Positions 9,771-64,000 of a stretch of DNA of 64,000 nt are shown one piece after another. The position numbers were made by a program, and so were the translations under genes. The notes beneath the pieces were generated by a model. The model had not been told where the DNA came from, did not search any database, and saw only the letters and a program-made list of their open reading frames with translations. The DNA comes from Candidatus Babelota bacterium (GTDB lineage Bacteria; Babelota; Babeliae; Babelales; Vermiphilaceae), in assembly GCA_029262555.1 (NCBI GenBank), contig JAJCZE010000016.1, positions 25,129 through 89,128 of the forward strand, written 5' to 3'. Positions within the stretch are counted from its first letter, which is position 1; each line of letters starts with the position of its first letter.

Positions 9771-10127
9771 GCAGGTATTTCCTTCCTGATAATAAAAAAA
9801 GAACAATAAGAAACTGTCTAACTTCCTTTATGTTAGCAGACAACTTAATAATTGTAAAAATAATCATTGTTGAAAATTCTCATTCGAAAAAAATCATAAT
9901 GCCTGGCAATATCACATATTTAGGCCTCTCCGCACAGCGTTACAATTTGAAACGATAAATCAGGCCTCATTTCGAGACTTCAAGCAGCCTCTCCTTATAA
10001 AAAGAACCCCCATTTCATTGACAAATCGCTCAATGCCGATACCCTGATAATGTGGATTATTCTCATACTATAGGGGGATAAGTCCCCACTCAAATTGCAA
10101 TAAGAAAAATTAAAAGGGAATAAAACG

Positions 10128-39931: not shown

Positions 39932-40081
39932 ACCGTTTAAAACCTTTCAATAGAATGGAATATGCCTGAATTTTATGGATAAAACCATACTCTTATCGTA
40001 GAGAATCTGGGGTAAAATGTCAAAAAAGAGTGCTGAAAGACCTCTCTTTCTTTGCTCAAACACCCAAAGAGGCCCCCACAG

Positions 40082-40133
40082 GCCCTATCCCTTATCCTCA
40101 AAGGTCTCTTGGCAACCCAAACAGCGAGCCGCA
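40082..40133. repeat. Direct repeat copy A, a non-functional duplicate of the dksA 3' end
   Basis: This 52-bp segment is identical, apart from one synonymous-position mismatch, to 42949-43000. On the minus strand it reads AARCLGCQETFEDKG-stop, but an in-frame TAG lies just upstream and there is no start codon. Confidence 0.9.
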
Positions 40134-40275
40134 CCTGCCTATTCATCTCTCAACAGATAAATATCTAATATGTATATCTAGCAAAAGAGAGAACTATTGC
40201 CTTTTTGAAAATAAAAATGGCACATTGAGAATAATAAAAAAAAGAGGGCCTTGTTTTAGCAAAGGAAAAATCAAA

Positions 40276-49105: not shown

Positions 49106-49669
49106 ATGAAACTGCAGCTAGTATTGATTCTTTTTGCCACCAGTTCACTCCAAGGAGTTGTCCCAACCGATTGCCTTATTTCAGTAGCGCCTCATTGGCA
49201 AAGCGTAGAAAGTAGCTGTAAATATGAAGATGAATTTTGCAGCAAATTAATGCTCGTCGGCAGCGTTACGTTTCGCAAAAAATCAAAAGAGCCGATGAAA
49301 TTACAAACAATGCGCGTGGCATGGCATGGCAAGCGCATTGAGCATCTTGATGGATCACTCTATACAAAAATTCCCGGCAAAAAATTTCTTCCTATTGAAA
49401 AAAATCTTGTATCCGATAGTAATTGGAATAAAGCACGCCAAGAACTGATTTTTAACTTTCAAAACAACCCGCAAACACTGGGGCCTACAAGTATATTTTA
49501 TTTGGTTTTAACCGTGCCTGATTCAGTCGCTCAGACTCTTAAGGGCGGCCATTTTTCTGTGGTAAAACAAACGTTACCTCAATCATTTCAGCGCAAAGCT
49601 GGATCTTTGAGAATCGATCTTGCGCAGCTTTGCTCTGTACAAGATCGCAATCTTTCTGCCGCTGCATAA
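49106..49669 (+). CDS. Hypothetical secreted protein
   Basis: Signal-like MKLQLVLILFATSSLQG. No family recognised. Confidence 0.55.
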   Translation: MKLQLVLILFATSSLQGVVPTDCLISVAPHWQSVESSCKYEDEFCSKLMLVGSVTFRKKSKEPMKLQTMRVAWHGKRIEHLDGSLYTKIPGKKFLPIEKNLVSDSNWNKARQELIFNFQNNPQTLGPTSIFYLVLTVPDSVAQTLKGGHFSVVKQTLPQSFQRKAGSLRIDLAQLCSVQDRNLSAAA

Positions 49670-49785: not shown

Positions 49786-50145
49786 GTGAAAAAACTAATG
49801 AATTTTAAAGTCATACAAGAAGTAGCTAATATATTTTTCTTCACCAATATTTGCAATCCAGTTACTTGGTTTTTGGTGGGGGACATAGCGATTCTTTTAT
49901 TTAAAAAATCTATTTCTTCCGATGAAAAAGGTGCTCTTGTTTTTTTATATCGATTAAATATCGTAGTCGCATCTCTAGCAACTATTCTTATTGGAGGACT
50001 ACTTGCTCTTCTTGGCGGATCAGGTGGGGCCCCAATGCATGATTGGAAATATTTTGTATCGGGATTAAGTGCTGTATTTATCATATGGATGGTTGTACTA
50101 AGAAAAGCTTATTTATATCTATTATCAAAAGACTCTAAAAATTAG
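49786..50145 (+). CDS. Hypothetical small membrane protein
   Basis: Three hydrophobic helices. I prefer it over the overlapping minus-strand ORF 49743..50084, whose translation is low-complexity and Pro/Arg-rich. It starts at GTG. Confidence 0.5.
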   Translation: MKKLMNFKVIQEVANIFFFTNICNPVTWFLVGDIAILLFKKSISSDEKGALVFLYRLNIVVASLATILIGGLLALLGGSGGAPMHDWKYFVSGLSAVFIIWMVVLRKAYLYLLSKDSKN

Positions 50146-51005
50146 TCTCCCCTAGCCGTTCGCCCTGCCTGCCAGGCGTAGCCTTGGCGTAGACTGGAGC
50201 GTGTCGAAGGGTTCTGAGCGGAAAAAATTATTTTTCTAAATAACTGATCACCAACAACTCGATCTGAGTCTAAAATTTCTTTTGAAAAAGATGATATTTT
50301 ATACGCAAGCACAGACTCTATAAACGTATCTATTTTTTCATTTCGTGGAATGATATCGCTTTCTTGTGCAGTCGATTTTAAAGCAATCAGCTTCCCAATA
50401 TCTTGATCAAAATCTATATATGGAGCAAGCCCTGTTCGTAAGGATTTCATATCCATGGGGGGCAACGTGCCATGCACTTCAATCCATTTAAAAGCAAATG
50501 CCGGACGAATCGCATAGCAATACAATTTCACTTTCACGCTCTGCTCATCGCATTCTATTTGTTTCCAAATTGCCTGGAACAACTTATAATAATGCGTTTT
50601 TATATGCTCAAGATCGGCAGTTTTTTGAACATACTGCCAGAGCTCATCGACGATCGTTTTTTCTGTTTTATAAACAATGGGCGATTGCAACCATTCAATC
50701 AATATTGAATTTGATTTCAGCGCTAAATAAAGTGCTTTTCGAATATCCCACCCGTTTAAATCTAACGGCACTCCGAGCTGAGGATCGTGCAAAATATCAG
50801 TTTCTAATACATCTCTCTGCTGAATAATAGAAAAATAATCATCATAGGGCCGTACATATAAAAATCGCACATCATAATCGCTATCAACTGAGGGAAAGCC
50901 CCACGCACGACTGCCAGACTCTATTGCAAAAATAATAGTAACTTTATGCGTACTTTCAAACTCGGTCAGTTTTTGCGCGATATGATTGTTTATAGCGGTG
51001 GTCAT
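50142..51005 (-). CDS. COG3541 / pfam10127-type nucleotidyltransferase (Pol-beta superfamily), copy 1
   Basis: The NTase motif AIESGSRAWGFPSVDSDYDVRFLYV and LNGWDIRKALYLALKSNSILIEWLQSPIVY are typical of this family. The last 25 or so codons (...NPSTRSSLRQGYAWQAGRTARGD) come from a dispersed repeat. The start overlaps the stop of copy 2 (ATGA). Confidence 0.85.
   Translation of the reverse strand: MTTAINNHIAQKLTEFESTHKVTIIFAIESGSRAWGFPSVDSDYDVRFLYVRPYDDYFSIIQQRDVLETDILHDPQLGVPLDLNGWDIRKALYLALKSNSILIEWLQSPIVYKTEKTIVDELWQYVQKTADLEHIKTHYYKLFQAIWKQIECDEQSVKVKLYCYAIRPAFAFKWIEVHGTLPPMDMKSLRTGLAPYIDFDQDIGKLIALKSTAQESDIIPRNEKIDTFIESVLAYKISSFSKEILDSDRVVGDQLFRKIIFSAQNPSTRSSLRQGYAWQAGRTARGD
50146..50222. 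repeat. Solo arm of the palindromic element, with an internal insertion, embedded in a gene's 3' end
   Basis: The minus strand reads CCCTTCGACACGCTCCAG, then an insert of about 26 nt, then CAGGGCGAACGG. Compare the left arm of the 31233 element, CCCTTCGACAAGCTCAGGGCGAACGG. Confidence 0.5.
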
Positions 51006-52009
51006 GATAATTCTGCTTTTTGTATTTGTTGTAAATATGTCTTTTCAATAAAATCATCAATTAAATGTGGATCACTGGCCTCGGGTAACGTTGATTTCAA
51101 GGCAAGCGCTTCCACCTTGCCTACTAACTGTTCAATTTCTTGCAACACCTCATCATATGAGATGGTTCCTAATTTGATGGCAAATAAGCGCTCTCGCTCT
51201 GGACGTGGAAAAGTAAGGCGATGATCGGTAAGAAATTCCAATGCTTGATGCCCAATGCGAACTGCATGCGATAGCGCCTTCCAATCAGCCCCTGAGTTTT
51301 GTTCAGCCTGTTTTGCCCGGTCGCCATATTGATGAATAACGTTTTGCACAATTTGACGTGCATTTTTAATAGATGCATGAAATGCAATTTTTTTTCCGCA
51401 AACTTGCAGATGCTTCTCTGTAATACCATTTGGCTGCATAAACGAAGTTATTGAAAGATCTGAATGAGCAGAAACAACTGGCATCACTGTATCTATAGTT
51501 TTTACAAGCGGGGCCATTGTTCCATATGTTTGTTCTGCCGATAACAGCACTTCCAATACAGCTCGTGCTGCACTCAATTTTGATCCCTTTTTGCCATACT
51601 TATATGCCTGCTGCTTGCAATACGCCACAAACGATGCCGCTTGTTTAGTTAATAATTGCATCGATAATTTCTTCATCTCATTCCACAGATGATCTGGTGG
51701 CTCTAAAAAAGATGATTCGGGAGCAAAAAGCATTTCTAATGCAAAAGATTGCCCTTTGGCAACAGAACGCAAAAATTTTTCTGGGCTATACAACTCAAAA
51801 TCAGTATCGGTAGAATCATTTTTCTCTCCCAGCCCTTTACTTCGAGTGGCAACAATAACTGGCTCTACTCGCTGCAAAAGGATGTCACGAGCCGAAGGAA
51901 GATAAACGCCCTTGATGTCCAAATCTGATTGAGGGGTATTGGTGCCGTAAAGATGCGATCCATATCGTATCAGCACTATGGATTTATATTTTTTTTTATT
52001 TTGCATCAT
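51002..52009 (-). CDS. COG3541 / pfam10127-type nucleotidyltransferase, copy 2 (long form)
   Basis: The NTase motif YGSHLYGTNTPQSDLDIKGVY, ALEMLFAPES and the C-terminal helical region (YGDRAKQAEQNSGADWKALSHAVRIGHQALEFL) are typical of the family. I prefer an ATG at 52009 or 52006 over the TTG at 52018. Confidence 0.85.
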   Translation of the reverse strand: MMQNKKKYKSIVLIRYGSHLYGTNTPQSDLDIKGVYLPSARDILLQRVEPVIVATRSKGLGEKNDSTDTDFELYSPEKFLRSVAKGQSFALEMLFAPESSFLEPPDHLWNEMKKLSMQLLTKQAASFVAYCKQQAYKYGKKGSKLSAARAVLEVLLSAEQTYGTMAPLVKTIDTVMPVVSAHSDLSITSFMQPNGITEKHLQVCGKKIAFHASIKNARQIVQNVIHQYGDRAKQAEQNSGADWKALSHAVRIGHQALEFLTDHRLTFPRPERERLFAIKLGTISYDEVLQEIEQLVGKVEALALKSTLPEASDPHLIDDFIEKTYLQQIQKAELS

Positions 52010-52021
52010 ATATATCAATTA
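51854..52021. repeat. 168-bp direct repeat, copy 1 (5' end and start region of NTase copy 2)
   Basis: It aligns base for base with 52654-52821, an offset of exactly 800 bp, with about 11 mismatches by eye. The distal 90 bp or so has a single mismatch. Confidence 0.9.
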
Positions 52022-52143
52022 TTGAAAAAGTTTGTATCAATTCATCTGCCATGATTGAAATCGTCTCACAATGCCATTAATTACACTATCCAGTCGCCAG
52101 TATTAGCATTAAGTGGACCAAAAATATAGAAATGCTTTTTTAT

Positions 52144-52614
52144 TTATTTATCTTTTAAAATTCCTTGGTGCTGCTTTTCTTCATCAAAATATTTAATTAA
52201 AAAAGTTTTACTTAAAAAAGGATTTTTCTTATTGATTCTAACAAACTCTACCTCAAAACCGCATTTCTTATAAAAACCTGGAGCTTGAAAATGAGAGGTG
52301 ACAAGATTTATGTTGTTATATCCTTTGCCTTTGAAAAAACTCTCTAATTCTGTCAGCAATTTGCGCCCTAAATTTCTACGTCGATATGAAGGATGTACCC
52401 ATATATCATCAATATAAATTTCTGAAAACGCTGTATAGGCCTGCAAAGCTCCTATTACAATACCGCTTTTATCCTTCATTACAAAAATAATCTTTTTATA
52501 ATTGCAAACAATTCCCTTTTTAGTCTCATCATTTACATGTCCTTGATAAATCAAATCTTCTATACTCGAAGGAAGTTTATCAAGTTTTTCTATTATATAA
52601 CCCTGATTATTCAT
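52144..52614 (-). CDS. GNAT family N-acetyltransferase
   Basis: 156 aa with acetyl-CoA motif A (VHPSYRRRNLGRKLLTELESF) and the C-terminal FYKKCGFE. Confidence 0.88.
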   Translation of the reverse strand: MNNQGYIIEKLDKLPSSIEDLIYQGHVNDETKKGIVCNYKKIIFVMKDKSGIVIGALQAYTAFSEIYIDDIWVHPSYRRRNLGRKLLTELESFFKGKGYNNINLVTSHFQAPGFYKKCGFEVEFVRINKKNPFLSKTFLIKYFDEEKQHQGILKDK

Positions 52615-52647
52615 TATGCATTTCTTTTTTTACAATGTTTTGTTCAA

Positions 52648-52809
52648 TTAAAAAATAACCGGCTCTACTCGCTGCAAAAGAATGTCGCGAGACGAAGGAA
52701 GGTAGATGCCCTTAATGTCCAAATCTGATTGAGGAGTATTGGTACCGTAAAGATGCGATCCATATCGTATCAGCACTATGGATTTATATTTTTTTTTGTT
52801 TTGCATCAT
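52648..52809 (-). pseudogene. Truncated N-terminal fragment (53 codons) of a COG3541 nucleotidyltransferase
   Basis: It translates to MMQNKKKYKSIVLIRYGSHLYGTNTPQSDLDIKGIYLPSSRDILLQRVEPVIF-stop. This nearly matches the first 51 or so residues of the 51002..52009 product, then ends where the repeat ends. Confidence 0.8.
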
Positions 52810-52821
52810 ATATATCAATTA
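52654..52821. repeat. 168-bp direct repeat, copy 2
   Basis: See copy 1. This copy contains the stop codon of the 245-aa ORF and the NTase fragment. Confidence 0.9.
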
Positions 52822-53521
52822 CCTTTTGAGCGCATGCTTGTAATTCTTGAGCTAATAATTCATTGAATTTTGTTTTCTCGTCATTTTCATAAAGAATATT
52901 TGATAAACAATAAAGGCGTTTTAACTGAAGAAAAAGCGTATAGGATATTCCAGAGTAAACATCTGGATTTTCTAATATACAGCTACTTCGTGCTAAAAAA
53001 TTCTCTACGTTATTTGAAATGAAAAAACCTTCATTATGCTTACTCATTTTTTTTAAATAACCAATAAACGGCTCCACATGCTTTTCAATTAGTTCATTAG
53101 TATACTCAAGGCTATATTCACGCTCTGCTCCAATGATCGAAGGGATCTTGTTATTTTTTTTATGCAATTTTATCGATTTTTTAATATGTATGCTTAACCT
53201 TTTTGCAAGCTCACTAACTTCTTTCCATTGTTCTGTCTTTGAAAAATTATCAAGCATCTCATAGCCTATGATCAAAAAACTAAACATTTGAAATCTTTGG
53301 AATAACTCTAGACCGGTGATTCCGATGATTTGTTGAAAATCAGGAGCATGGCCTTCTAGGATATCAAAGCTCATTGAGCTCGGAAGCCCATGACAATCAA
53401 AACCACACCAAAAATCCATTTCCTGGATATTTTTCTCGATATTGGGATCTGCGATAAAATCAAGAGTGGAACACCATTCGTTTATAAGTATGCTATATAA
53501 GCGCTCATTAGAAAGATTCAC
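52784..53521 (-). CDS. Hypothetical protein (245 aa), AT-rich
   Basis: Uninterrupted ORF with a GTG start that overlaps (GTGA) the stop of a 37-codon upstream ORF. Its last 8 or so codons and its stop lie inside repeat copy 2. No family recognised. Confidence 0.6.
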   Translation of the reverse strand: MNLSNERLYSILINEWCSTLDFIADPNIEKNIQEMDFWCGFDCHGLPSSMSFDILEGHAPDFQQIIGITGLELFQRFQMFSFLIIGYEMLDNFSKTEQWKEVSELAKRLSIHIKKSIKLHKKNNKIPSIIGAEREYSLEYTNELIEKHVEPFIGYLKKMSKHNEGFFISNNVENFLARSSCILENPDVYSGISYTLFLQLKRLYCLSNILYENDEKTKFNELLAQELQACAQKVIDIYDAKQKKI

Positions 53522-53631: not shown

Positions 53632-53746
53632 ATATGGCCTCTTATATGCTATTTTTGAATTATGAGACTCACCTTTATAATATTATATAAGCCCATTTAT
53701 GACAATCTACTAAAACAGATGGTTTTTGTGGTTTAAAAAGGCAAAC

Positions 53747-54511
53747 ATGCATAATTTTCTTGATCTTATAAAAAGGCAAAAGGTTGCTGACGTAAAAAGG
53801 CTTCTTAAAGACGGCATTGATCCAAATATTCCAAAAATCATCTCAACTGATCCGTATGTGGTCGAACTATTCCCCTTAATCGTGGCTGTTAAAACTGGAA
53901 ATTTGGAGATCGTAAAACTCCTTATTGCACATGGAGCAAAGGTTGATGTAAGTACCATTTCTGATGGCCAAACGCCACTACACACTGCATTTTTTATTAA
54001 TGGCGACTATCCACAAGCCTTTACTCAAAAAGAGGGTGCGCAAAAAATAACTGAAATGGTCCATTATTTAGTTTCGCTCGGCGCAGATATAAATGCCGAA
54101 GGTGGATTTTGCCTTACCCCCTTTTTATTGGCAATAGACGCAGTAAAGAAGAAATGCGTCGATGTGAGCTTGCTGCAATATTTAATTGATCATGGTGCAG
54201 ATGTAAATAAAGTGCTTACGTGCGTTGATGAAAATAAATCTCGAACCACTGCGCTTGGCGCGGCAATAGAAGTGCATAGTTTAGATACAGGAGGACACCC
54301 CAAGTTCATAAACTTGGAGATTTTTGCATTGCTCATCAAAAACGGAGCTGACCCATCAATTAACCCAAAGGGATTTACTCCACTTCAAGAAGCGTTCGAT
54401 ATACAAGAACAATTGCAAAACAACTTAACCAACTTGAAACAACAAATTAATAACGCTGAGAAAATTGTTGAATATTTAAAATCCGCAACGCAAATCAATA
54501 ACAATGAATAA
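53747..54511 (+). CDS. Ankyrin-repeat protein
   Basis: ANK units such as FPLIVAVKTGNLEIVKLLIAHGAKVD and QTPLHTAFF. I prefer the ATG at 53747 over the TTG at 53726. The stop overlaps the next start. Confidence 0.88.
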   Translation: MHNFLDLIKRQKVADVKRLLKDGIDPNIPKIISTDPYVVELFPLIVAVKTGNLEIVKLLIAHGAKVDVSTISDGQTPLHTAFFINGDYPQAFTQKEGAQKITEMVHYLVSLGADINAEGGFCLTPFLLAIDAVKKKCVDVSLLQYLIDHGADVNKVLTCVDENKSRTTALGAAIEVHSLDTGGHPKFINLEIFALLIKNGADPSINPKGFTPLQEAFDIQEQLQNNLTNLKQQINNAEKIVEYLKSATQINNNE

Positions 54512-55223
54512 AGTTACCGAACTCATCCAAACAATTAAGTCAAATGACGAAGTACTGGTCGAAAAACTTCTCACGCAGGGTGCAGATCCAAATGGGTATA
54601 TGCCTGAAGCAGATACACGTATCTTTACAGGAGCAACTACTCCTTTAATGGCTGCATCCCGTCAAAAAAATACCGCAATTTTAAAACTTCTCGTTCGATT
54701 TGGCCTTACAATACAAGGAGCTGAACCATTGCGTGCTGCAATCGCTCCAAACTATTTATTGCAAGCTCGAATTTCACAAGACGAGGTTCGCATGCGTACG
54801 ATGGAAACAATAAAATATTTAGTCTATCACGGTGCTGATTTGAATGCCCCTGATGAGCTCTTCGAACTAACACCATTCTTGATGGCGATCTATGAAAATG
54901 ACCTAGAATTAGTAGCATTTTTTATTGATCAGGGTGCAATTATAAATCAAATCTCAAAAAAACGAAATACAAAACTGGTTACTCCCCTTTTAGCTGCCAT
55001 TGAAACACATTCAGCTCCAATAGTTAAGCTGCTCTTGAAACATGGAGGAAACGCGAATCAAATCGTTGAACATAAAGAGCCGCTTCAATACTCTCGAGAT
55101 ACGCTTACATTACTTAAAACTAATGCCAATAAAATACAAAAACTATCTACCAACAACGATAAAATTATCGATCTATTGGTTCGTAACGGCGCCAAGACTG
55201 ATTATCCATGGATAGATAAATAA
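54504..55223 (+). CDS. Ankyrin-repeat protein
   Basis: ANK units: TTPLMAASRQKNTAILKLLVRFG, TPFLMAIYENDLELVAFFIDQGA and VTPLLAAIETHSAPIVKLLLKHGGNAN. Confidence 0.88.
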   Translation: MNKVTELIQTIKSNDEVLVEKLLTQGADPNGYMPEADTRIFTGATTPLMAASRQKNTAILKLLVRFGLTIQGAEPLRAAIAPNYLLQARISQDEVRMRTMETIKYLVYHGADLNAPDELFELTPFLMAIYENDLELVAFFIDQGAIINQISKKRNTKLVTPLLAAIETHSAPIVKLLLKHGGNANQIVEHKEPLQYSRDTLTLLKTNANKIQKLSTNNDKIIDLLVRNGAKTDYPWIDK

Positions 55224-55373
55224 CAATTGATATAAACTTTCAAATAGTCGGCTTCTGAACTTAAAAAGTACCAATACCACCTCTCACAGAGCTCATCAAA
55301 GCCCCTTTTTACTAAAATGTCCCTATTTGATATATTATTCATAAGAATATAATTGTTATTTTCCTTAGGGGTT

Positions 55374-56198
55374 ATGATGAATAAACAGTTTTTAGTATTT
55401 CCTATGATCATTGCAGTGCTAATAGGTGCTCTTTCTGGGTGTATTTCTCAGCAGCATAATAAACAACTACCCACAAGCACGTTCGAAACACCGCGAGAAA
55501 CTCCAAAAATCGTGCGTTCAGAAAAAAATAACATTATTGATTTTTCAATAAAACCACGAGCTGTGCCTGAAATAAAAATAGGTGAATGCGCCTATTGTGG
55601 TAAAGAAACCGAGAATGCATGTGAACGCTGTAAACTTACCTGCTACTGCTCTCAGGAATGCCTAAAATTAAATAAGTGGAAGCACTCAGCAGAATGTGAC
55701 GAAATTAGACAAGCGTATTTTGGCGACTTAGAATGCATGAAAAAGGCTTGCTATGCTTACTTTCGAAAAGCAGCGCTCTCGCCAAATGACTCTTTCTTTT
55801 TGAAACGAGGAATGTCCTGGTTTCAGAGAACTCTTATTAGGTTAAGTCAAGATATCGAATGCTCTAAAGATCCCTCTACCATGGCGGCTATAGAGCAGTT
55901 TTGCATGGAAGTAGGTTCGTTTACTCAGCCACTAGTTAAAAATAATATTTGCACGGAAGAAGATTTGAAAAATCTTGGCAAAGAAGTTTTTTCAGAGAGC
56001 ATTGAATGGGTAGCTCGCATAACTAAAGCAAATATGCTTGTACCGCCTTACGACATAAGAATATATGGGCTTAAAGTATTTAAAAATCCTGAACTTAATA
56101 TTGAAAACGAATTTATACCTAAAAATGAGTGGTATGCTAAGCGCATGAGTGTATTACAAGAATATGAAAAAAGACTGAATGACATCGTGTCTTCATAA
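55374..56198 (+). CDS. Putative lipoprotein with a MYND-type zinc finger
   Basis: Signal peptide with a lipobox (MMNKQFLVFPMIIAVLIGALSGC). CAYCGKETENACERCKLTCYCSQECLKLNKWKHSAEC fits the MYND pattern C-x2-C-x7-C-x2-C-x4-YCS-x2-C-x5-W-x2-H-x3-C. Confidence 0.85.
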   Translation: MMNKQFLVFPMIIAVLIGALSGCISQQHNKQLPTSTFETPRETPKIVRSEKNNIIDFSIKPRAVPEIKIGECAYCGKETENACERCKLTCYCSQECLKLNKWKHSAECDEIRQAYFGDLECMKKACYAYFRKAALSPNDSFFLKRGMSWFQRTLIRLSQDIECSKDPSTMAAIEQFCMEVGSFTQPLVKNNICTEEDLKNLGKEVFSESIEWVARITKANMLVPPYDIRIYGLKVFKNPELNIENEFIPKNEWYAKRMSVLQEYEKRLNDIVSS

Positions 56199-56234
56199 AA
56201 ATGGGTAGATGAATAATAATTGGAAAGGAGTTCC

Positions 56235-56834
56235 GTGAAATGTAAATGGATTATGCTATCACAGCTGCTACTATTCATCATGTCTTTCCCTTTTCTTTTT
56301 CGATATCTCTCATCAAATAAACCAACCCACGACAAGCAGCTTATTGAAAGCATTTCAAAAAAAGAAATTTCCGGCCTTTTGCAAGAAAGCCCCTATGAAC
56401 CAATGGTTGATCTGACGCATAAAACGCGATTGATTCGTTTTTTAATGGAAAATGGGCACACAGATTTTGTATTTGAAAGCCATGATGCAGAGGAAGCTGA
56501 GAAGCTTCGTGATAACCTCAGTCCGGCTCGCCTAGCCTTTGATATGGATGTAATAGATGACGAATATCCCTTAGTAGTCGCATGCTTTTATCGAGAGCAA
56601 TCTCAATATAAGCCATTTTTGACTCAATTGCAGGAACTTGCAAGGCAAAAAGAAGATATTAAGTTTGTCCTTGTTGATGGAGATAAGCTCTTTTCCCTCG
56701 TTGAATGGGCCGCAATTCAGACTTTTCCAACGCTCTTATTCGTCAAAGATGGCGAAATCGTTGATCATTTGGACGATGCTACTATAGAGCAGGTCAGGCC
56801 CAAAATAAACAACCTCGAAGCTAAACAGCCATAA
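56235..56834 (+). CDS. Thioredoxin-fold-like protein lacking the CxxC motif
   Basis: The C-terminal half resembles a thioredoxin fold (PLVVACFYREQSQYKPFLTQLQELARQKEDIKFVLVDGDKLFSLVEWAAIQTFPTLLFVKDGEIV), but REQSQY sits where CxxC would be. The N-terminus is hydrophobic. The start is uncertain (TTG 56220, GTG 56235 or ATG 56253). Confidence 0.55.
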   Translation: MKCKWIMLSQLLLFIMSFPFLFRYLSSNKPTHDKQLIESISKKEISGLLQESPYEPMVDLTHKTRLIRFLMENGHTDFVFESHDAEEAEKLRDNLSPARLAFDMDVIDDEYPLVVACFYREQSQYKPFLTQLQELARQKEDIKFVLVDGDKLFSLVEWAAIQTFPTLLFVKDGEIVDHLDDATIEQVRPKINNLEAKQP

Positions 56835-56925
56835 ATAGACGATTTTATTGCGGTTTTAATCAAACATGATACCATGAAAACTATGGAAAAACCGCCACTG
56901 AAATCGTTTTTGATTGGATATCATT

Positions 56926-58581
56926 ATGAAAGAAATTAAAAACTTATCACAAGAACAAATGCTCCGTGCAGAAAATGCACGGAAAAAAATTCTTTCTCTT
57001 TTTATGCATCGGCATGGTGAGTTGAGTGAGTTTAGTACCCTCACGCGCATTAAGGAGTTGCTAAAAACGCCAGGCCTTGACTTGCAAACTGATCTTCATG
57101 GTACCCTGGCTTCCGCTCTCGAGTCGGCTATGGTGTTTTTTTCAGAAGCTGTGAAACTCATTCTTCCTTATCTTTCTTCCCAACAAATACTTTCTTACTC
57201 AAACATACATGGACGCACACTGTTAATGAGTGCAGCACAATTTGACCGAAACGGTGAGGTGACTCAGTTAATTCTAGATGCTGGAGCAACGGCTGAGTAT
57301 GTTAATGCAAAAACTGAACTTGGCACAACAGCGCTTCATTTTGCCTGTCGAGAAGGAAATTTTGATGCAGTGAAACTTTTGGCTCCGCATATATCGGCTG
57401 GAGAAATTGTTGCGAAAGACAAAACAGCTTTTTCGCCCCTGATGATTGCCGCAGCACAAGGGTATGAACACATTGTGCAGTTTTTGGTTCAGGCCGGAAT
57501 TAGCGGGAAAATCGCATCCGATTTTGATGATGACCTTGCAATCGAAAGCGCATTAGGTATGGCCGCGGTACATGGAAACTTCGAATGTACTCGGGTGCTA
57601 TTGCAAGATGGAATAAACGGGATAACTCCCGAGCTTATTTGCAAAAAAGACTCATTGGGAAGAACGATCTTTTCAGAAACCGCACTTTATGGGCACGTTG
57701 ATGTTGTGTCTCTTCTTATTGATCGAGGCTTAACGGGCGATCAGATAAATATTCAAAACAATGAGGGTTTCACGCCACTTATGAGTGCTGCTTATGATGG
57801 CAATCTCGACATGGTTGAGCGATTGCTACCTCATTTGCACGCAACACATCTTCAGGCGAAAAATGATGATGATAAGACGGCGTTAGATTTGGCGGTAGAT
57901 CAAGGACATGCTGATGTTGCAAGCATGCTGGTAACTGCGCTGCACAAAAAAACATGCGAAGAGACTGTTTTTCCAATCTTGCGAACTGTCGCTAAATCAA
58001 ACAATGCGGATATGCTTTTAAATCTGTGGAGTACTGGATTTGTTCAAGATCATCTTGAGTATCAAGACAAAGAGGGATTGAACCTACTCATGATAGCGGC
58101 AGCTCATGGAGCTACAGATGTAATGAAGATTCTGATTGAATATCACAATGATTTCAGCTTAAAAAAAACCACGATAGACGGAAAAACAGCACTCATGTAT
58201 GCAATTCAAACCGGCATACATGATTCAGTTAAGATGTTGCTGGATGCGGGGGCCTCTTTAGATTGTCATGATGTTACAGGAGAAACACCCTTAATGATGG
58301 CAGCGCGATGGGACAAAGAAATGGTGCAGCTTTTACTTGATAGCGGGCTGACGTACGAAGATATTTCGTGGCACGATAATTATGGACACACTGCGCTTAT
58401 GAATGCAGCTGAATCGGGAGATGCGCAAACAATACGCCTTCTTCTCGATTCCGGATTGACTCTCAAAGATATCAATCGGACAGATGGTACCTCTGGTATG
58501 GCAGCTATCGACTATGCAGAAACAGATGAAATTAAGCGCCTTATTCAAGATCGATTAGATGAATTAACAGAAAAAGCATAA
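56926..58581 (+). CDS. Ankyrin-repeat protein (array member 1)
   Basis: More than 10 ANK units (for example GTTALHFACREGNFDAVKLL and FTPLMSAAYDGNLDMVERLL). C-terminal motif AIDYAETDEIKRLIQDRL. ATG at 56926. The stop overlaps the next start (TAATG). Confidence 0.9.
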   Translation: MKEIKNLSQEQMLRAENARKKILSLFMHRHGELSEFSTLTRIKELLKTPGLDLQTDLHGTLASALESAMVFFSEAVKLILPYLSSQQILSYSNIHGRTLLMSAAQFDRNGEVTQLILDAGATAEYVNAKTELGTTALHFACREGNFDAVKLLAPHISAGEIVAKDKTAFSPLMIAAAQGYEHIVQFLVQAGISGKIASDFDDDLAIESALGMAAVHGNFECTRVLLQDGINGITPELICKKDSLGRTIFSETALYGHVDVVSLLIDRGLTGDQINIQNNEGFTPLMSAAYDGNLDMVERLLPHLHATHLQAKNDDDKTALDLAVDQGHADVASMLVTALHKKTCEETVFPILRTVAKSNNADMLLNLWSTGFVQDHLEYQDKEGLNLLMIAAAHGATDVMKILIEYHNDFSLKKTTIDGKTALMYAIQTGIHDSVKMLLDAGASLDCHDVTGETPLMMAARWDKEMVQLLLDSGLTYEDISWHDNYGHTALMNAAESGDAQTIRLLLDSGLTLKDINRTDGTSGMAAIDYAETDEIKRLIQDRLDELTEKA

Positions 58582-60263
58582 TGTCCAAACACCCTGTAAA
58601 CCACTCACAATTACATCCTGATAAAGCAAGTAAAGCACTCTTGCGTGCAAGTCAAAGCGGGGATCTGCAAAAAGTTAAAGCCCTTTTGAACGTTCCTGGT
58701 ATTGATTTCAATGCTCAAGATGAAGATGGTGATACTCCGTTGATGCTTGCATGCCTAGAAGGCCATGTTGAAATCGTTTCGCTATTATTGAAACATGGAC
58801 CACAATCACAACTAAATCTGCGCGATCACGAACAGGAAACCGCTTTGTTTTTAGCGGCAGGACAAGGACATTTAGACGTTATTAAAATAATATTAGATTG
58901 CAACCTTTCGCCTGAACAACTCAATGCGCAATGCGATATAGGAATGACGCCCTTGATTATCAGCATTACAGAAGGTCATTCTGCCATTGCATCCCTTTTA
59001 ATTTCTCGATTATCACCAGCACAGCTCTCGATTCAAGACAATACAGGAATGACGTCGCTGATGTATGCACTAAGTAAAGGCAATACCGAAATTGCAAAAA
59101 TGATTTTAGCTGCTGTGATGGATGCCAAACAGCTATCAATTCAATGTGAAGAGGGATGGACTGCATTGATGTGGGCAAGTATGCAAAAAGAAGATGACAT
59201 CATCAACCTTCTTCTGGATGCGGGCTTATCACCAGAGCAAGTCAACTTAGAAAATAAGCGTAGTCGAACCGCTTTGATGATAGCAACGCATGCGGGACAT
59301 CTAAAAATAGTAGAATCTTTTTTAAAAAAAATTGATTCAAGCGAAATCATTCGTGCCAATAAATATGGCGAAACGGCACTTTTAATGTCTGCGCGAATGG
59401 GTAACGCAAAATGTATTACATTGCTTCTTGAATATCTTGATGAAGATCAGGTGCGTGATCATGGAATACGGCCATTAATTGATGCTATATGGTATCAATA
59501 TATCGATATTGTAAAATTACTCGTTGATGCAGGGATTGATCAAAAAGATATTTTAACGCCCTATAAAAAAAGTAAGCCCGACCCATCACCCTTGCTCTAT
59601 TCAATTGCTAAAGGAAATGAACAAATTATTCAAACGTTACTTTCAAAAATATCCTCTATAAAAAAAATCGACGAAGCTATCGTGAAAACTCATCTACTCA
59701 AAGCAATTGAAGTTGGAAGTATGGATGCATTTGAGTATTTTTTGCCACACATATCCAAATCTGAATTGTGCGCCTCGTCGAGACTCCAAAACGATAGAAA
59801 CCCCTATCTAATGGCTGCTATTAATCATAATCAAGTGGTAATGGTAGAACGACTTTTAAAAGAAGGGGTCCCTGCGGGAGGCTGGCACTATCATTATTAT
59901 CACGAATGGCTTGATGAAAATTCTGAATCTTCTCCAGCGCTATTTACTGCTACGCAAAAAGGGTATGTCGAAATAGTAAAACTTCTTCTTGAAAAAGTAT
60001 CATTAGCGCAGGTAGGACATCATATATGGGATAGTTATCACAATCCCGGTGATGATCAATGCTGTAGCGAATATTTGGATGGCACTACGGCTCTTATGGC
60101 CGCCGCTCAAAATGGACACTTTGAAGTTGTAGCATTACTTCTCGATGCAGGGTTAAATCAAGAGCATATTCTTTATGAGGATAATAACTTTAAAACTGCT
60201 TTAGATTTAGCTGCAACAGATGAAATAAAAAAGTTGATTGAAGAGAGACTAAAAGAACAATAG
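58581..60263 (+). CDS. Ankyrin-repeat protein (array member 2)
   Basis: Multiple ANK units (DGDTPLMLACLEGHVEIVSLLLKHG and others). C-terminal motif ALDLAATDEIKKLIEERL. Confidence 0.9.
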   Translation: MSKHPVNHSQLHPDKASKALLRASQSGDLQKVKALLNVPGIDFNAQDEDGDTPLMLACLEGHVEIVSLLLKHGPQSQLNLRDHEQETALFLAAGQGHLDVIKIILDCNLSPEQLNAQCDIGMTPLIISITEGHSAIASLLISRLSPAQLSIQDNTGMTSLMYALSKGNTEIAKMILAAVMDAKQLSIQCEEGWTALMWASMQKEDDIINLLLDAGLSPEQVNLENKRSRTALMIATHAGHLKIVESFLKKIDSSEIIRANKYGETALLMSARMGNAKCITLLLEYLDEDQVRDHGIRPLIDAIWYQYIDIVKLLVDAGIDQKDILTPYKKSKPDPSPLLYSIAKGNEQIIQTLLSKISSIKKIDEAIVKTHLLKAIEVGSMDAFEYFLPHISKSELCASSRLQNDRNPYLMAAINHNQVVMVERLLKEGVPAGGWHYHYYHEWLDENSESSPALFTATQKGYVEIVKLLLEKVSLAQVGHHIWDSYHNPGDDQCCSEYLDGTTALMAAAQNGHFEVVALLLDAGLNQEHILYEDNNFKTALDLAATDEIKKLIEERLKEQ

Positions 60264-60273
60264 TGAGACTTGA

Positions 60274-61665
60274 ATGGGACTAGGTGTACAAGATTCAATA
60301 AAGCGATATTTTAAAGCTATTGCGGATGTAGATAGCAAAAAATGCCTTTTTTTATTAAAGGTGTCCGCATTACAACAAAAGCCATTTTGGGAAGGAGTTA
60401 AGGGGGAGTGTAACACGACAGTTTTGATGGCGGCAGCAAGAAAGGGTTTTTTTAACATTGTAAAGTTGATAGTGGAATCGGGGGCAAATGTTAATGCTAA
60501 AAGCAGTTCTGGCTGGACAGCTTTAATGTCTGCTGCATGCAATCTAGAGGTTTTAAAATATTTAGTAGATGCCGGAGCCGAAGTCAATGCACAAAATGAT
60601 TGTGGCGAGACGGCGTTGATCATTGCGGCAGGATGTGGGCAACTTGAAATTGTAAAGTATTTACTCCAAGTTGGAGCCGATCTTGACGCACAAACTGATT
60701 GTGGCGAAACGGCTTTGATCTGTGCGGCAGAGTATGGGCATCTTGAAACTATAAAATATTTATTGCATGTGGGAGCCAATCTTGATGCTAAAGATAAAGG
60801 TGGCAAGACAGCTTTAGATCGAGCATTGGCGAAAAAAGAGCAAGAGGCTGCAGAATTACTAATCCAGGCATCGTCAGGTGCCGACTCTAGAAAGAATGGT
60901 TGTAGCAATGCCTTATTGGATGCATTGTGCCGGGAAAGACTTGTAGATGATATTGAGGACCTAGGGGCATTATTCAAGAAAATTAAATATCTCTTGAAAT
61001 CAGGAGCCGATGTTGATGCTAAAGATGGGGATGACAAAACAGTTTTAATCCGGCTTGCATCGATAAAAGATTCATTGATTGGAGAAGGGGATTTACAAGA
61101 GATTGTAGAGTTTCTATTACAGGCGGGTGCCGATATTAACGCTAAAGACAGGAATGGGGATTCAGCTTTAAAGCTGGCTATGCTGAACAGATATTGGAAT
61201 ATTGCAAAACTTTTCATTCAGGCTGGTGCAAATGCCTACTCGAAAGACGCCCAGGAGGATACCATTATGAAGTGGGCTATATTGCATGAGAGTTATTTGG
61301 TGGAGGATATGTTTCAATCTGGAGCTGATATTAATTATAAAGATGATTATGGAATGACCCCGCTGATGTATGCTGCACGATCAAAGGATCATTATTGCGC
61401 TTTAACTGTTACATTTTTATTGGAGAACGGTGCGCATATAAATGAAAAAGACAATAATGGATGGACTGCGTTGATGCATAATGCTGCAACTCATTCAGTT
61501 GCTGTGCCGGATAAATTTCCTGCGCCTTGGGGGGATAAATTAGAGGTTGCAAAACGTTTTTTGCGGGCTGAAGCAGATCCCAACGTTAAAGACCATAAAG
61601 GACAGAGTGCACTTGATTTAGCTGCGACAGATGAAATAAAGAAGTTGATTGAAGATAAGTTGTAA
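60274..61665 (+). CDS. Ankyrin-repeat protein (array member 3)
   Basis: Multiple ANK units, including two adjacent 99-bp units that are highly similar at the DNA level. C-terminal motif ALDLAATDEIKKLIEDKL. Confidence 0.9.
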   Translation: MGLGVQDSIKRYFKAIADVDSKKCLFLLKVSALQQKPFWEGVKGECNTTVLMAAARKGFFNIVKLIVESGANVNAKSSSGWTALMSAACNLEVLKYLVDAGAEVNAQNDCGETALIIAAGCGQLEIVKYLLQVGADLDAQTDCGETALICAAEYGHLETIKYLLHVGANLDAKDKGGKTALDRALAKKEQEAAELLIQASSGADSRKNGCSNALLDALCRERLVDDIEDLGALFKKIKYLLKSGADVDAKDGDDKTVLIRLASIKDSLIGEGDLQEIVEFLLQAGADINAKDRNGDSALKLAMLNRYWNIAKLFIQAGANAYSKDAQEDTIMKWAILHESYLVEDMFQSGADINYKDDYGMTPLMYAARSKDHYCALTVTFLLENGAHINEKDNNGWTALMHNAATHSVAVPDKFPAPWGDKLEVAKRFLRAEADPNVKDHKGQSALDLAATDEIKKLIEDKL

Positions 61666-61684
61666 GAACAGCAGGGGAGATTGA

Positions 61685-64000
61685 ATGGGACCAAGTATGA
61701 ACGATAAAATCAATGATATGCTCCTTGCGATACAGGCGGGTGACATTAGAACCGCTTTAAATTTATTGCAAGCATCAAATCTGGATGTAAATGTAGCGAA
61801 TGCGATTGGCTATACTCCTTTATTGATAGCGGCTGAAAATGGTCATTGTGAAATTGTAGAACTGTTACTACAAAAGGGCGCTGAAGTTAACCATCAAGAT
61901 AGAAACGGCTACAGTGCTTTGATGTTTGCTGCCTTTCTTGGTCACGAAAAAATGGTTGAGGTGCTTTTGAATGCGGGAGCGCAAGTAAATGATAAAAACA
62001 ATCGCAACTTAACTCCTTTGTTATTAGCAATGGAAGGACACAAGGCGGAGATTTCCGAAGGCAAAACTAATTGCTATCACTTGAACGTTTTTGAGTTATT
62101 ATTGCGAAAAGGTGCGGATGCAAATTCACAATACTCAAAAAAGCATGCATCTCGAACAGAATACATACTTGAAGTAGCTATTGAGTTTGGAGACAATGAA
62201 ATCACATCTTTGCTTTTACAATATGGCGCCAATCCAACGTATGCCTTGCACGAAGTTGTGAGGCGAGGGGATATAAAGAAGGTGAGATTGCTATTGGGCT
62301 GGGGTGCCGATATAAATGATAACCGAATGAGATCAGTTCTTGCATCAGCGATTGACAATGATCGTGAAGAGATCATTGAAATTTTGCTACAAGAAGGAGT
62401 CCGCTGTGAACTTGGAACATTAATATCTACAATAAAAGTTGGAAAAATATCTCTCCTAGGGAGACTTGTCGAAACAATGGGGCTGTCTGCACAGGAACGA
62501 TTAGAGTTAATTACTTTTTGTATTACACATAATTATCATGACATAGCAAAAAATCTTCTGACAAGGTTGAGCGATGAGGAATTGCAAGCTCAGGGTAAAA
62601 ATGGTGAATCACTATTAATTAGGGCGATAAAAGATGGAAACTCATCACTTGCAGAACAGATTATTTCGCGCGTTTCAGTTACACATTGCTCACTGAAAGA
62701 CCATACAGGAAAAACGGCGCTTATGTGGGCAGCGATAAGAGGCCTTATTACAGTAGTAAAGCAACTTTTTCTTATTTTGGAATCAAATGATACTGTATCA
62801 ACAGATGAAGATGGAAAAACAGCTCTAATGTTTGCACTTTGTGCGGGGCACGTTGAAGTATTTGAACTGCTGAATAATTGTAAGGATGAAAAAATTGAAG
62901 GTACTCTTGAAGTGCTGAAAGATGTTATTCAAAAATCAAACTACGACCTCCTTTCATTTTATGACAATTCATTTTTTGAAAATATTGAATCATTTAACAA
63001 GGCAAAAAACGAATTTATTGCTGCGGAAAAAGGTCGGAAAGAACTTGTTCGAAAATTGTTGGAAGATAAATTTCCAGAAAAAAATTGGCATTGGAATGAT
63101 CTAGCATCTTTATGTGTGCAAGCGGGCTTGCAGCAAGAAGATATTTGGGCAAAGCAGGAAGAGCAGCTTGTCAGAAGCGCCCTGTTTGGTGCAACCGAAA
63201 ATGGGGACTTAGAGTTGTTTACTTCTCTTTTAAGGAGGCTTAGTCCGCAACAATTACACTTGCAAGATGGTATTGGAAAGTCAATCCTTATGAGACTAAT
63301 TGATTGGGTTGCTTATGAAGAAGAGGCGGAAAAAATGTTGGAGCAGCTTTTTCAGCATCTGGAAAAACATGCTCCACAGGTATTGATTATTCAAGACGAA
63401 GTGGGGCGTACCGCATTGCATTATGCCGCATGGTTACGTCACTATGACATTGTAAGATACTTAATTTCGCGTTTACCTCGCGAGCAACTATGCATACAAG
63501 ATAAATTTGGCATCACACCAATTCAAGCTTCTGTTTGCTATATGGATAGAAATAATATCGAAGATATAGAGGTGCGAATAGTCGAATTATTTTTTAATGC
63601 CGGCTTATCTCGTGATCAGCTAAATAGTAAAGATAGCTATGGATGGTCTCCTTTCATGTGGGCGCTCATTGTACCTGAGGAGGAAGGAGTTGAAAAACTA
63701 AAAGAATTGTTTTTCAACGCAGGGTTTACCTGGGAGGATGTTTCAGCTGCATCACAGGACAAAGAGAATTTCACAGTACTTGGGTGCCTTATGGAGTCTG
63801 GAAAATTAGAGTGGGTACAAGCACTAGTTGAAAAAACTTCTTCGGAAGTCGTTTCAATCTCGGCATATATTGGAGAGGCGCTAATAAAGGCTACTAAACG
63901 AAAAGATTTCGATAAAATTTTTGAAATTGTTGCACATAAAGATCCCCACTCTGATTGGGCATCAATTCGAAATAAATATGGTGAGACAGTGTTAATGCAT
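61685..64000 (+). CDS. Large ankyrin-repeat protein (array member 4), 3' end outside the window
   Basis: It is absent from the ORF track because no stop occurs. I translated 61685-64000 codon by codon and found 772 sense codons with no stop (MGPSMNDKINDMLLAIQAGD...YGETVLMH). ANK units include GYTPLLIAAENGHCEIVELLLQKGAEVN. Its start context (GAGATTGAATGGGAC) mirrors that of the preceding gene (GAGACTTGAATGGGAC). Confidence 0.88.
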   Translation, partial: MGPSMNDKINDMLLAIQAGDIRTALNLLQASNLDVNVANAIGYTPLLIAAENGHCEIVELLLQKGAEVNHQDRNGYSALMFAAFLGHEKMVEVLLNAGAQVNDKNNRNLTPLLLAMEGHKAEISEGKTNCYHLNVFELLLRKGADANSQYSKKHASRTEYILEVAIEFGDNEITSLLLQYGANPTYALHEVVRRGDIKKVRLLLGWGADINDNRMRSVLASAIDNDREEIIEILLQEGVRCELGTLISTIKVGKISLLGRLVETMGLSAQERLELITFCITHNYHDIAKNLLTRLSDEELQAQGKNGESLLIRAIKDGNSSLAEQIISRVSVTHCSLKDHTGKTALMWAAIRGLITVVKQLFLILESNDTVSTDEDGKTALMFALCAGHVEVFELLNNCKDEKIEGTLEVLKDVIQKSNYDLLSFYDNSFFENIESFNKAKNEFIAAEKGRKELVRKLLEDKFPEKNWHWNDLASLCVQAGLQQEDIWAKQEEQLVRSALFGATENGDLELFTSLLRRLSPQQLHLQDGIGKSILMRLIDWVAYEEEAEKMLEQLFQHLEKHAPQVLIIQDEVGRTALHYAAWLRHYDIVRYLISRLPREQLCIQDKFGITPIQASVCYMDRNNIEDIEVRIVELFFNAGLSRDQLNSKDSYGWSPFMWALIVPEEEGVEKLKELFFNAGFTWEDVSAASQDKENFTVLGCLMESGKLEWVQALVEKTSSEVVSISAYIGEALIKATKRKDFDKIFEIVAHKDPHSDWASIRNKYGETVLMH

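Follow-up and report, generated by a model that had tools for sequence, protein, structure and literature searches.

A tandem family of ankyrin-repeat genes at the core of a variable island in a member of the Babeliales

The Dependentiae (TM6) form a widespread, almost uncultured phylum of obligate parasites of protists. Among the closest described systems, Babela massiliensis encodes 126 ankyrin-repeat (ANK) proteins, 79 of them with a signal peptide, has ANK-enriched islands and has no secretion system other than type II (Pagnier et al. 2015, PMC4378268), and Chromulinavorax destructans encodes 98 ANK proteins, 78% of them with a signal peptide (Deeg et al. 2019, PMC6561590). Here we analyse a window of 64,000 nucleotides (C16:25129-89128) of G000, the metagenome-assembled genome (MAG) under study, whose last 10 kb had been singled out in a preliminary description as a dense expansion of ANK genes. 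With a probability of roughly 55%, our analysis favours a genuine lineage-specific tandem family of ANK-only proteins, forming the core of an island of approximately 35 kb, whose genes are old paralogues and whose products would be host-binding modules. Positions without a contig name are those of the window, and features beyond its end are located by contig.

GyrB sequences place G000 in the Babeliales, phylum Dependentiae: its nearest relatives are a 'Candidatus Babeliales' MAG (68% identity) and a 'Babeliaceae' MAG (62%), with all others at 60% or less. The assembly has 21 contigs, 1.11 Mb, approximately 40% G+C and an estimated completeness of 95%, and its sequence is present in four biofilm metagenome runs from one study. 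The GyrB affinity and the genome size bear out the earlier assumption of a host of the obligate-intracellular type. Babela belongs to the same phylum and order and is similar in its reduced genome of about 1.1 Mb, its many tandem duplications, its ANK islands with other eukaryote-like or secreted proteins, and its lack of an injection system, with type II only and 47 of the 126 ANK proteins without a signal peptide. The locus in G000 differs in that a single array, marked by a C-terminal module specific to the family, concentrates the leaderless genes, in a genome with only about 30 ANK genes. It also differs in having a defined insertion site, a defined orthologous island in a sister lineage and a defined disruption by an insertion sequence (IS). 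Chromulinavorax is likewise a Dependentiae parasite of protists, whose ANK proteins have been proposed as its main tools for host manipulation with Sec as the export route, but none of the G000 array genes carries the signal peptide found on 78% of its ANK proteins. Although they lie in a Dependentiae genome, the array genes lack, by a heuristic, the leader that marks the signal-peptide-bearing ANK candidates of the phylum.

Outside the phylum, the Dot/Icm ankyrin effectors of Legionella (AnkX, AnkB, AnkH) and the ANK genes of Wolbachia are also leaderless, occur in intracellular bacteria and show lineage-specific expansion and turnover. They are, however, delivered through type IV systems and in most cases have an additional domain (FIC, F-box), whereas the G000 array has no extra domain and no type IV marker was found in the genome. 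The terminal ANK arrays of poxviruses and giant viruses share large leaderless families, tandem duplication with recombination, and fast turnover. Their products, in contrast, are synthesised in the host cytoplasm itself, where no export is needed, and many end in an F-box (PRANC) that is absent from the G000 array. Within the family of G000, tandem arrays of giant ANK proteins (695-1946 aa) occur in other genera, at G013:C1:1026-1058 kb and G015:C58:80-100 kb, all with signal-peptide-like N-termini, and neighbouring copies in G013 have identical leaders.

Open reading frames (ORFs) were tested with the Pfam Ank profiles (PF00023, PF12796 and PF13637). All six ORFs at 53.7-64 kb scored far above the Ank_2 gathering cut-off of 27.3 bits (67-315 bits; E-values 1e-18 to 7e-96), confirming both the count of six ANK genes in the last 10 kb and the expectation that a proper domain search would detect the repeats. 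The seventh gene of the preliminary description (40030..42936, + strand, 968 aa) is a separate insertion outside the island and gave matches to its ANK region only, all below cut-off. The array genes are all leaderless and on the + strand. The array opens with two tandem paralogues of 31% identity, ANK261 (53726..54511, 261 aa; Pfam Ank 2.7e-21) and ANK239 (54504..55223, 239 aa; 2.4e-19). Between these and the following run of four stand two non-ANK genes that the earlier account had passed over, also on the + strand. One encodes a MYND-finger protein (55353..56198; zf-MYND 22.3 bits, just under the 22.7 cut-off) with a lipoprotein-type leader and a lipobox-like ALSGC at its N-terminus, and the other a thioredoxin-like protein with a hydrophobic N-terminus (56220..56834; Thioredoxin 27.9 bits). 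The latter has weak relatives in 7 of 30 related genomes, none at the same site, and without syntenic homologues it was ruled out as a synteny marker.

The run of four comprises ANK555 (56914..58581, likely start ATG at 56926; at least 12 repeats and a C-cap tail; Ank_2 1.9e-64), ANK560 (58581..60263; at least 13 repeats and a C-cap tail; 8.4e-77), ANK463 (60274..61665, with internal 99-nt units at 60460-61170; 6.8e-96) and ANK827 (61685..64000; 7.8e-69). The junctions are as tight as had been described: the first two genes overlap by 1 nt at 58581 (TAATG), and the next two gaps measure 10 and 19 nt. ANK827 does continue past the window, reaching 827 codons and ending at window-equivalent 64168 (C16:89296). 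The gene set and the run of four thus stand as described, but the array does not end at the window edge: approximately 4 kb more extends to the contig end and beyond. From the same-strand packing at 0-20 nt the array genes are probably co-transcribed. Promoter and terminator scans gave counts no higher than in shuffled sequence, so the spacing is what supports an operon.

Between 10 and 14 repeats per gene were detected by profile, with a 99-nt periodicity in ANK463. From N-cap to C-cap the array proteins consist of ANK repeats; Pfam, NCBIfam and PADLOC gave no match to any other domain, and the PADLOC matches were to generic ANK repeats only. Each protein is predicted to form a solenoid of about 5 to more than 14 repeats, free of leader, membrane segment and catalytic domain. 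An AlphaFold model of ANK827, made with no alignment, is all-alpha with paired helices, at low confidence (mean predicted local distance difference test score, pLDDT, 53.7; residues 366-495 unmodelled).

Downstream of ANK827, five more ANK genes follow on the same strand of C16. The first is frameshifted (C16:89311-89941, 123 + 97 aa) and looks like an out-of-frame internal deletion between repeats. Genes of 175, 304 and 353 aa follow, and a 197-aa ANK ORF, the 5' part of a split gene, runs into the contig end. Four of the six downstream C16 ORFs clearly pass the Pfam Ank profiles, and the 304-aa ORF is weakly ANK (19.5 bits). Copies of the final 130 nt of C16 stand at the ends of C3, C7, C10 and C19, and copies of approximately the first 110 nt of C15 at the ends of C3 and C17. 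They belong to the ends of a multi-copy IS5-like element (C16:93250-93387 and C15:1-143, interior unassembled), which we take to be of the IS5 family, IS427 group. Its terminal inverted repeats (19 nt) are perfect, and a TA duplication within a YTAR-like target flanks them. The 40 residues at its C-terminus align with the end of Pfam DDE_Tnp_1_2 (E 6e-6). The ends of its copies are 100% identical, apart from one base in C7. When the element and one TA are removed, C16:92677-93249 and C15:146-1156 join into an uninterrupted 527-codon ORF in which the junction is read through an ANK repeat. The rejoined protein aligns colinearly with ANK827 (38% over 508 aa) and, in the sister lineage described below, with the 868-aa protein S868 (44% over 504 aa), and therefore C15 follows C16. 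The sequences thus indicate that the last array gene was recently split by the IS5-like element, which accounts for the C16 break and several other contig breaks.

A comparison of the array between strains or metagenome bins had been suggested. A metagenome protein search with ANK560 found a single close relative, at 62% identity, on a 31.6-kb metagenome contig (JGI 3300009149) that carries the same neighbourhood, with core proteins 76-86% identical to those of G000; 30 related genomes yielded repeat-level matches only and no ANK560 orthologue. On this sister contig the island is orthologous and its gene content different. Partners were found for ANK555 (S431, 46%), ANK560 (S259 and S421, 71% and 62%), the 353-aa ANK gene (ANK356, 67%) and the IS-split gene (S868). 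Among the other island genes, the pair of nucleotidyltransferases (NTases; 79-81%), the metallophosphatase (a 60-aa remnant, 73%), the DEDDh exonuclease (80%), ANK224 (ANK229, 61%), the leucine-rich repeat (LRR) protein (a remnant, 57%) and ANK988 (a split gene, 59-66%) also have counterparts. One sister gene, ANK441, has no partner in G000. Absent from the sister contig are ANK261, ANK239 and the MYND, thioredoxin and GNAT genes, as well as the whole block of ANK463, ANK827, the frameshifted pseudogene and the 175-aa and 304-aa genes. S259 and S421 (sister contig 9235-11266) are each complete, with their own N-cap and tail, and overlap on residues 163-251 of ANK560; the one-gene and two-gene states point to fusion or fission via recombination between repeats. 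Like their G000 counterparts, the sister orthologues lack a leader and have the same tail at their end.

Ratios of nonsynonymous to synonymous substitution rates (dN/dS, Nei-Gojobori) were 0.16-0.33 for the ANK orthologue pairs, with ANK560 against S259 and S421 at 0.28-0.33, compared with 0.07-0.11 for core genes just outside the island. ANK genes with sister orthologues are thus under purifying but relaxed selection. At four-fold degenerate sites, the NTases, ANK560, ANK353 and ANK224 differ by 0.32-0.44 from their sister counterparts, compared with 0.51-0.60 for gyrB, the genes w47046 and w48050 and the 187-aa gene that flank the island. The pooled values are approximately 0.38 for island genes and 0.56 for the core, and ANK555/S431 goes the opposite way (0.72). 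These differences hint that parts of the island may be younger than the flanking core and that the island may have been exchanged between related lineages.

The paralogues are old. The four proteins of the run are only 23-29% identical overall and the array paralogues 23-40%, so that G000-sister orthologues (46-71%) are more alike than paralogues are among themselves. They are nevertheless tandem paralogues and not merely neighbours with a common repeat: adjacent same-strand genes are colinear beyond the generic repeat (full-length colinear alignments were obtained for 555/560, 560/827 and the IS-split gene/827) and have in common an N-cap and a 45-aa C-terminal module. The module, with consensus ...LPYLS.EQI..KD..GKTALDLAATDEIK.LIQ.RL.EL, is common to 12 proteins of the two lineages. 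Among 261 Dependentiae genomes searched (G000 and 260 others) it has a strong match in G000 only, and its strong form was found in G000 and the sister lineage only. The tail was also considered as a special export signal and rejected; similar C-caps occur on leader-bearing ANK proteins of other genera (G241, G228), and it is best read as a capping repeat. Phylogeny of the individual 33-aa repeats had been proposed as a means of dating the duplications, and it carries no signal: the repeats are saturated at 45-56% identity, except for one adjacent pair in ANK463 with 71% identity at the protein level.

The near-identical start contexts at two junctions had been taken as a mark of tandem duplication. 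They are part of a longer repeat: 60197..60302 (+ strand), comprising a C-cap tail, a spacer with a GAG-type ribosome-binding site (RBS) and the N-terminal codons of the next gene, recurs at 61608-61713 (106 nt, 75% identity, spacing 1411 nt). The similarity and the tandem paralogy stand, but with gene bodies at 23-29% identity a recent duplication is not supported. A 43-nt exact repeat in the tail of ANK560 (60204..60246, + strand) also occurs in the tail of ANK827 (window-equivalent 64100-64142), 3896 nt downstream, and the tails of ANK463 and the pseudogene share a 30-nt exact repeat. Judging from the sequences, conserved N-cap and C-cap modules that gene conversion has homogenised better explain the junction similarity, because exact tracts sit in otherwise saturated paralogues. 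The 43-nt match cannot be a relic of an old duplication, and we read it as a substrate for gene conversion or recombination.

We propose that the tail-spacer-start junctions may serve as homology for unequal crossing-over and gene conversion, by which genes would be added, removed or fused. Unequal recombination at junctions fits the clean absence of a five-gene block in the sister, the one-gene and two-gene states of ANK560, and a cyclic Logan contig. The array is undergoing remodelling, with tails of non-adjacent genes homogenised, genes present or absent, one gene equivalent to two, one frameshifted and one cut by an IS. The Logan contig in question (3815 nt; runs X1 and X2) covers 62629..64087 and continues with 60192..62547, so that its path is cyclic and passes through the 43-nt repeat. 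It may be a de Bruijn-graph artefact at approximately 5x depth or a rare 3.9-kb ANK463-ANK827 tandem duplicate.

Three other accounts of how the array came to look as it does were weighed against an old tandem family. A recent tandem duplication, with the start contexts as its fresh scars, would fit the 106-nt junction repeat spaced exactly one gene apart, the 43-nt exact repeat in the tails of ANK560 and ANK827, and the one Logan contig that a 3.9-kb duplicate could explain. We consider it improbable, since the gene bodies are less alike than orthologues to the sister and the word depth over 60-64 kb is not doubled. The similarity is also confined to the termini and is mosaic (560 tail with 827 tail, 463 tail with pseudogene tail, 463 start with 827 start), a pattern that fits gene conversion or constraint and not a single duplication. 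That the array is mostly decaying junk, pseudogenised paralogues leaving a shrinking genome, is no more credible. The frameshifted gene, the IS-split gene, another ANK gene truncated by a second IS and the five genes missing from the sister lineage point that way, but ORFs of 463-827 codons are intact, tight spacing and RBS-like motifs are kept, and the dN/dS values of the orthologue pairs were obtained with unsaturated dS. The preliminary description had itself named collapsed or expanded repeats in the assembly as the outcome that would undo the array. A fragmented MAG, a contig end inside the array and the cyclic Logan contig could be cited in favour of this, but it can be dismissed with near certainty. 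Contigs of the four runs cover 49-64 kb at an even word depth of approximately 3-6x with at most three letters different in any listed piece; the longest repeats within the array (43 nt exact, 106 nt at 75%) are too short and too diverged to collapse; the multi-copy IS explains the contig break; and the independent sister contig has the same organisation.

The island is defined by its flanks, two genes of the housekeeping type. On the left, a conserved 187-aa gene (49106..49669, + strand; syntenic in related genomes) ends just before the island start at approximately 49670, and on the right stands a flavin amine oxidase gene (C15:15352). In three genomes of the same genus the order gyrB, w47046, w48050, 187-aa gene is kept, with the oxidase homologue approximately 0.15, 0.7 or 2.3 kb further on, itself succeeded by the next C15 genes. 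In at least seven other genera of the family, 76-920 bp separate the 187-aa gene from the oxidase gene. Overall the anchors are adjacent in at least 8 related genomes (those listed as adjacent are G001, G004, G005, G014, G015, G031 and G033, and as nearly so G002, G003 and G007). In G000 they are 33.7 kb plus the IS apart, for a variable region of approximately 35 kb. It holds 17 of the 32 ANK ORFs of G000 and 19.3 of 35.4 kb (55%) of the ANK coding sequence in 3% of the genome. The ANK genes form part of a lineage-specific variable island enriched in eukaryote-like modules (ANK, LRR, MYND), which in this respect supports the preliminary description.

Like a classical integrative island, the region is absent from relatives at a conserved site, but the other hallmarks of such islands (a tRNA target, an integrase, deviant composition) were not seen. 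No tRNA was detected at the island edges (window 40-64 kb and C15:1-20000). The Pfam-scanned island ORFs showed IS transposases and no integrase, in a search for integrases that was not exhaustive. The G+C content (0.38-0.41) matches that of the rest of G000. A foreign origin from a eukaryote or giant virus was considered and rejected; beyond the sister lineage the best matches are 23-35% identical and taxonomically scattered, the base composition is native, and no donor can be named. In a different genus (G010:C11:8676-23968) the same junction holds a 15-kb same-strand array of ten leader-bearing proteins of 191-840 aa, several paralogous and none ANK. The anchor junction is a recurrent hot spot for arrays of exported proteins.

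Leaders were called by a simple hydrophobicity heuristic, a hydrophobic-window score, on the longest possible ORFs. The score is 0-2 in the array genes, which have polar N-caps, and 5-12 in ANK genes elsewhere in G000. A secretion-signal prediction had been proposed as a check on the effector reading, and by this heuristic the array proteins all lack a hydrophobic leader at the N-terminus, the longest ORFs included. Within the island 12 of 14 ANK genes are leaderless, compared with 2 of 15 elsewhere (Fisher p = 1.5e-4, a descriptive value only, as paralogues are not independent); leaders are found on the other 13 of the 15 and on the two genes at the right edge of the island. The only systems seen in G000 are represented by two secretins and two TolC-like proteins. 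For type I export, HlyB and HlyD gave only sub-threshold ATP-binding cassette (ABC) and membrane fusion protein (MFP) matches in the genome.

The preliminary interpretation is upheld in part. The intracellular type of the host, the tandem paralogy and the island are borne out, but the claim that the ANK proteins are host-targeted effectors is not supported as it stood: neither a leader nor a known delivery system was found. By analogy with the ANK repertoires of cultured Dependentiae, for which this role has been proposed, the array products would be binding modules for host (protist) proteins. They might reach the host by a non-classical route, through lysing bacterial cells, vesicles or an unrecognised exporter; such a route would be needed, given that the proteins lack a Sec leader and that G000 encodes no known machinery for injection or type I export. 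The host-effector reading is thus argued by analogy, and the delivery step is its weakest part. Several points also limit the favoured explanation as a whole. VirB4/TrbE (PF03135), FHIPEP, TssC, phage sheath and gp25 were not found in the 95%-complete G000, in a search that did not treat the IVB ATPase separately, and the absence of each secretion system was judged from one marker family in an incomplete MAG. The leader calls depend on a hydrophobicity heuristic, the structure model of ANK827 is of low confidence, and the dN/dS values cover the array without ANK463, ANK827 and the frameshifted, 175-aa and 304-aa genes, which have no orthologue.

A serious rival to the host-effector reading, though one we regard as doubtful, is that the leaderless array proteins act inside the bacterium as scaffolds, chaperones, regulators or protective, immunity-type binders, and that only the leader-bearing ANK proteins encoded elsewhere are sent to the host. 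The division of leaders between array and genome is what such a role would predict, as are the lack of a detected injection or type I system and the conflict-type genes in the island (RlaP NTases, GNAT, NADAR (PDC-M42C), DEDDh exonuclease and metallophosphatase). The leader-bearing tandem ANK arrays of two other genera (G013, G015) would likewise set this array apart as a different class. However, it is not obvious what a bacterium with a reduced 1.1-Mb genome and few regulators would do with about 12 large ANK solenoids in its cytoplasm, rapid turnover with relaxed constraint is the usual pattern of host-interface genes, and 22-37% of the ANK proteins of cultured Dependentiae are leaderless in a family that authors still treat as host-directed. 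A more speculative proposal, which we think rather unlikely, is that the leaderless ANK-only array represents a class distinct from the Sec-exported ANK proteins of the phylum, delivered independently of Sec or acting on host-derived molecules inside the bacterium, on an island exchanged between related lineages. Classical injection through a type IV or type III system, as in Legionella, Coxiella or Wolbachia, is very unlikely. NCBIfam models of Dot/Icm Ank effectors (NF0430xx) do match, with E-values down to 1e-32, but these matches cover repeat regions only, at 30-125 bits against cut-offs of 450-1400, and the test of membership in these families gave a best score of 112 bits; no VirB4-type or FHIPEP match was obtained in G000, and Babela is reported with type II as its sole secretion system (PMC4378268).

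The remaining island genes are of mixed kinds. The non-ANK head on the - strand (50142..53521) encodes two RlaP-type NTases, a helical protein of 245 aa and a GNAT acetyltransferase (Pfam). The RlaP annotation comes from the orthologous sister contig, and a search for this NTase in five relatives gave no match. Beyond the array the island holds a metallophosphatase, a DEDDh exonuclease, an ANK lipoprotein of 988 aa encoded on the opposite strand, a 330-aa ANK gene with a leader, several unknowns and a second IS that truncates another ANK gene. A 224-aa ANK ORF is followed by a 679-aa LRR protein (C15:2997-5738) after a single TAA and 27 nt, and a genome search gave one 916-aa frame with one TAA, so the two may be an ANK-LRR fusion gene interrupted by a stop. 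A NADAR-domain protein (C15:9804-10307; Pfam 1.5e-57; PADLOC candidate PDC-M42C) adjoins three proteins without a family match.

The second IS family (DDE_Tnp_1_3 transposase, 292 aa) lies at C15:12019-12995 and has many copies at contig ends, with related ends on C1, C2, C5, C6, C8, C9, C12, C13, C16 (start), C18, C19 and C20; the contig that holds the window thus itself begins with an end of this element. The first codons of a '385-aa' ANK ORF come from the C15 copy, which is diverged (91-98%), and that ANK gene is therefore 5'-truncated. A 37-nt exact direct repeat (C15:11749-11785 and C15:15263-15299, 3514 nt apart) brackets this IS and two ANK genes; the conserved amine-oxidase gene begins shortly after its second copy.

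Host interaction in the Dependentiae has its signature gene set in ANK expansions, and such expansions, together with tandem duplications and islands rich in ANK genes, have been on record for the phylum since 2015. The array analysed here is real but expected in that setting. What is specific to it is that the whole array is leaderless and ANK-only, that its end modules are conserved and show gene conversion, and that its evolutionary context is resolved. The locus is a well-resolved example of how such arrays evolve, with a hot spot, gain, loss and fusion relative to a sister island, homogenised gene termini that can drive unequal recombination, and recent IS damage. It also sharpens the question of how, if at all, the leaderless 20-40% of Dependentiae ANK proteins reach the host without a known injection system. 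Here the leaderless proteins form one compact family, which can be tested as a unit.

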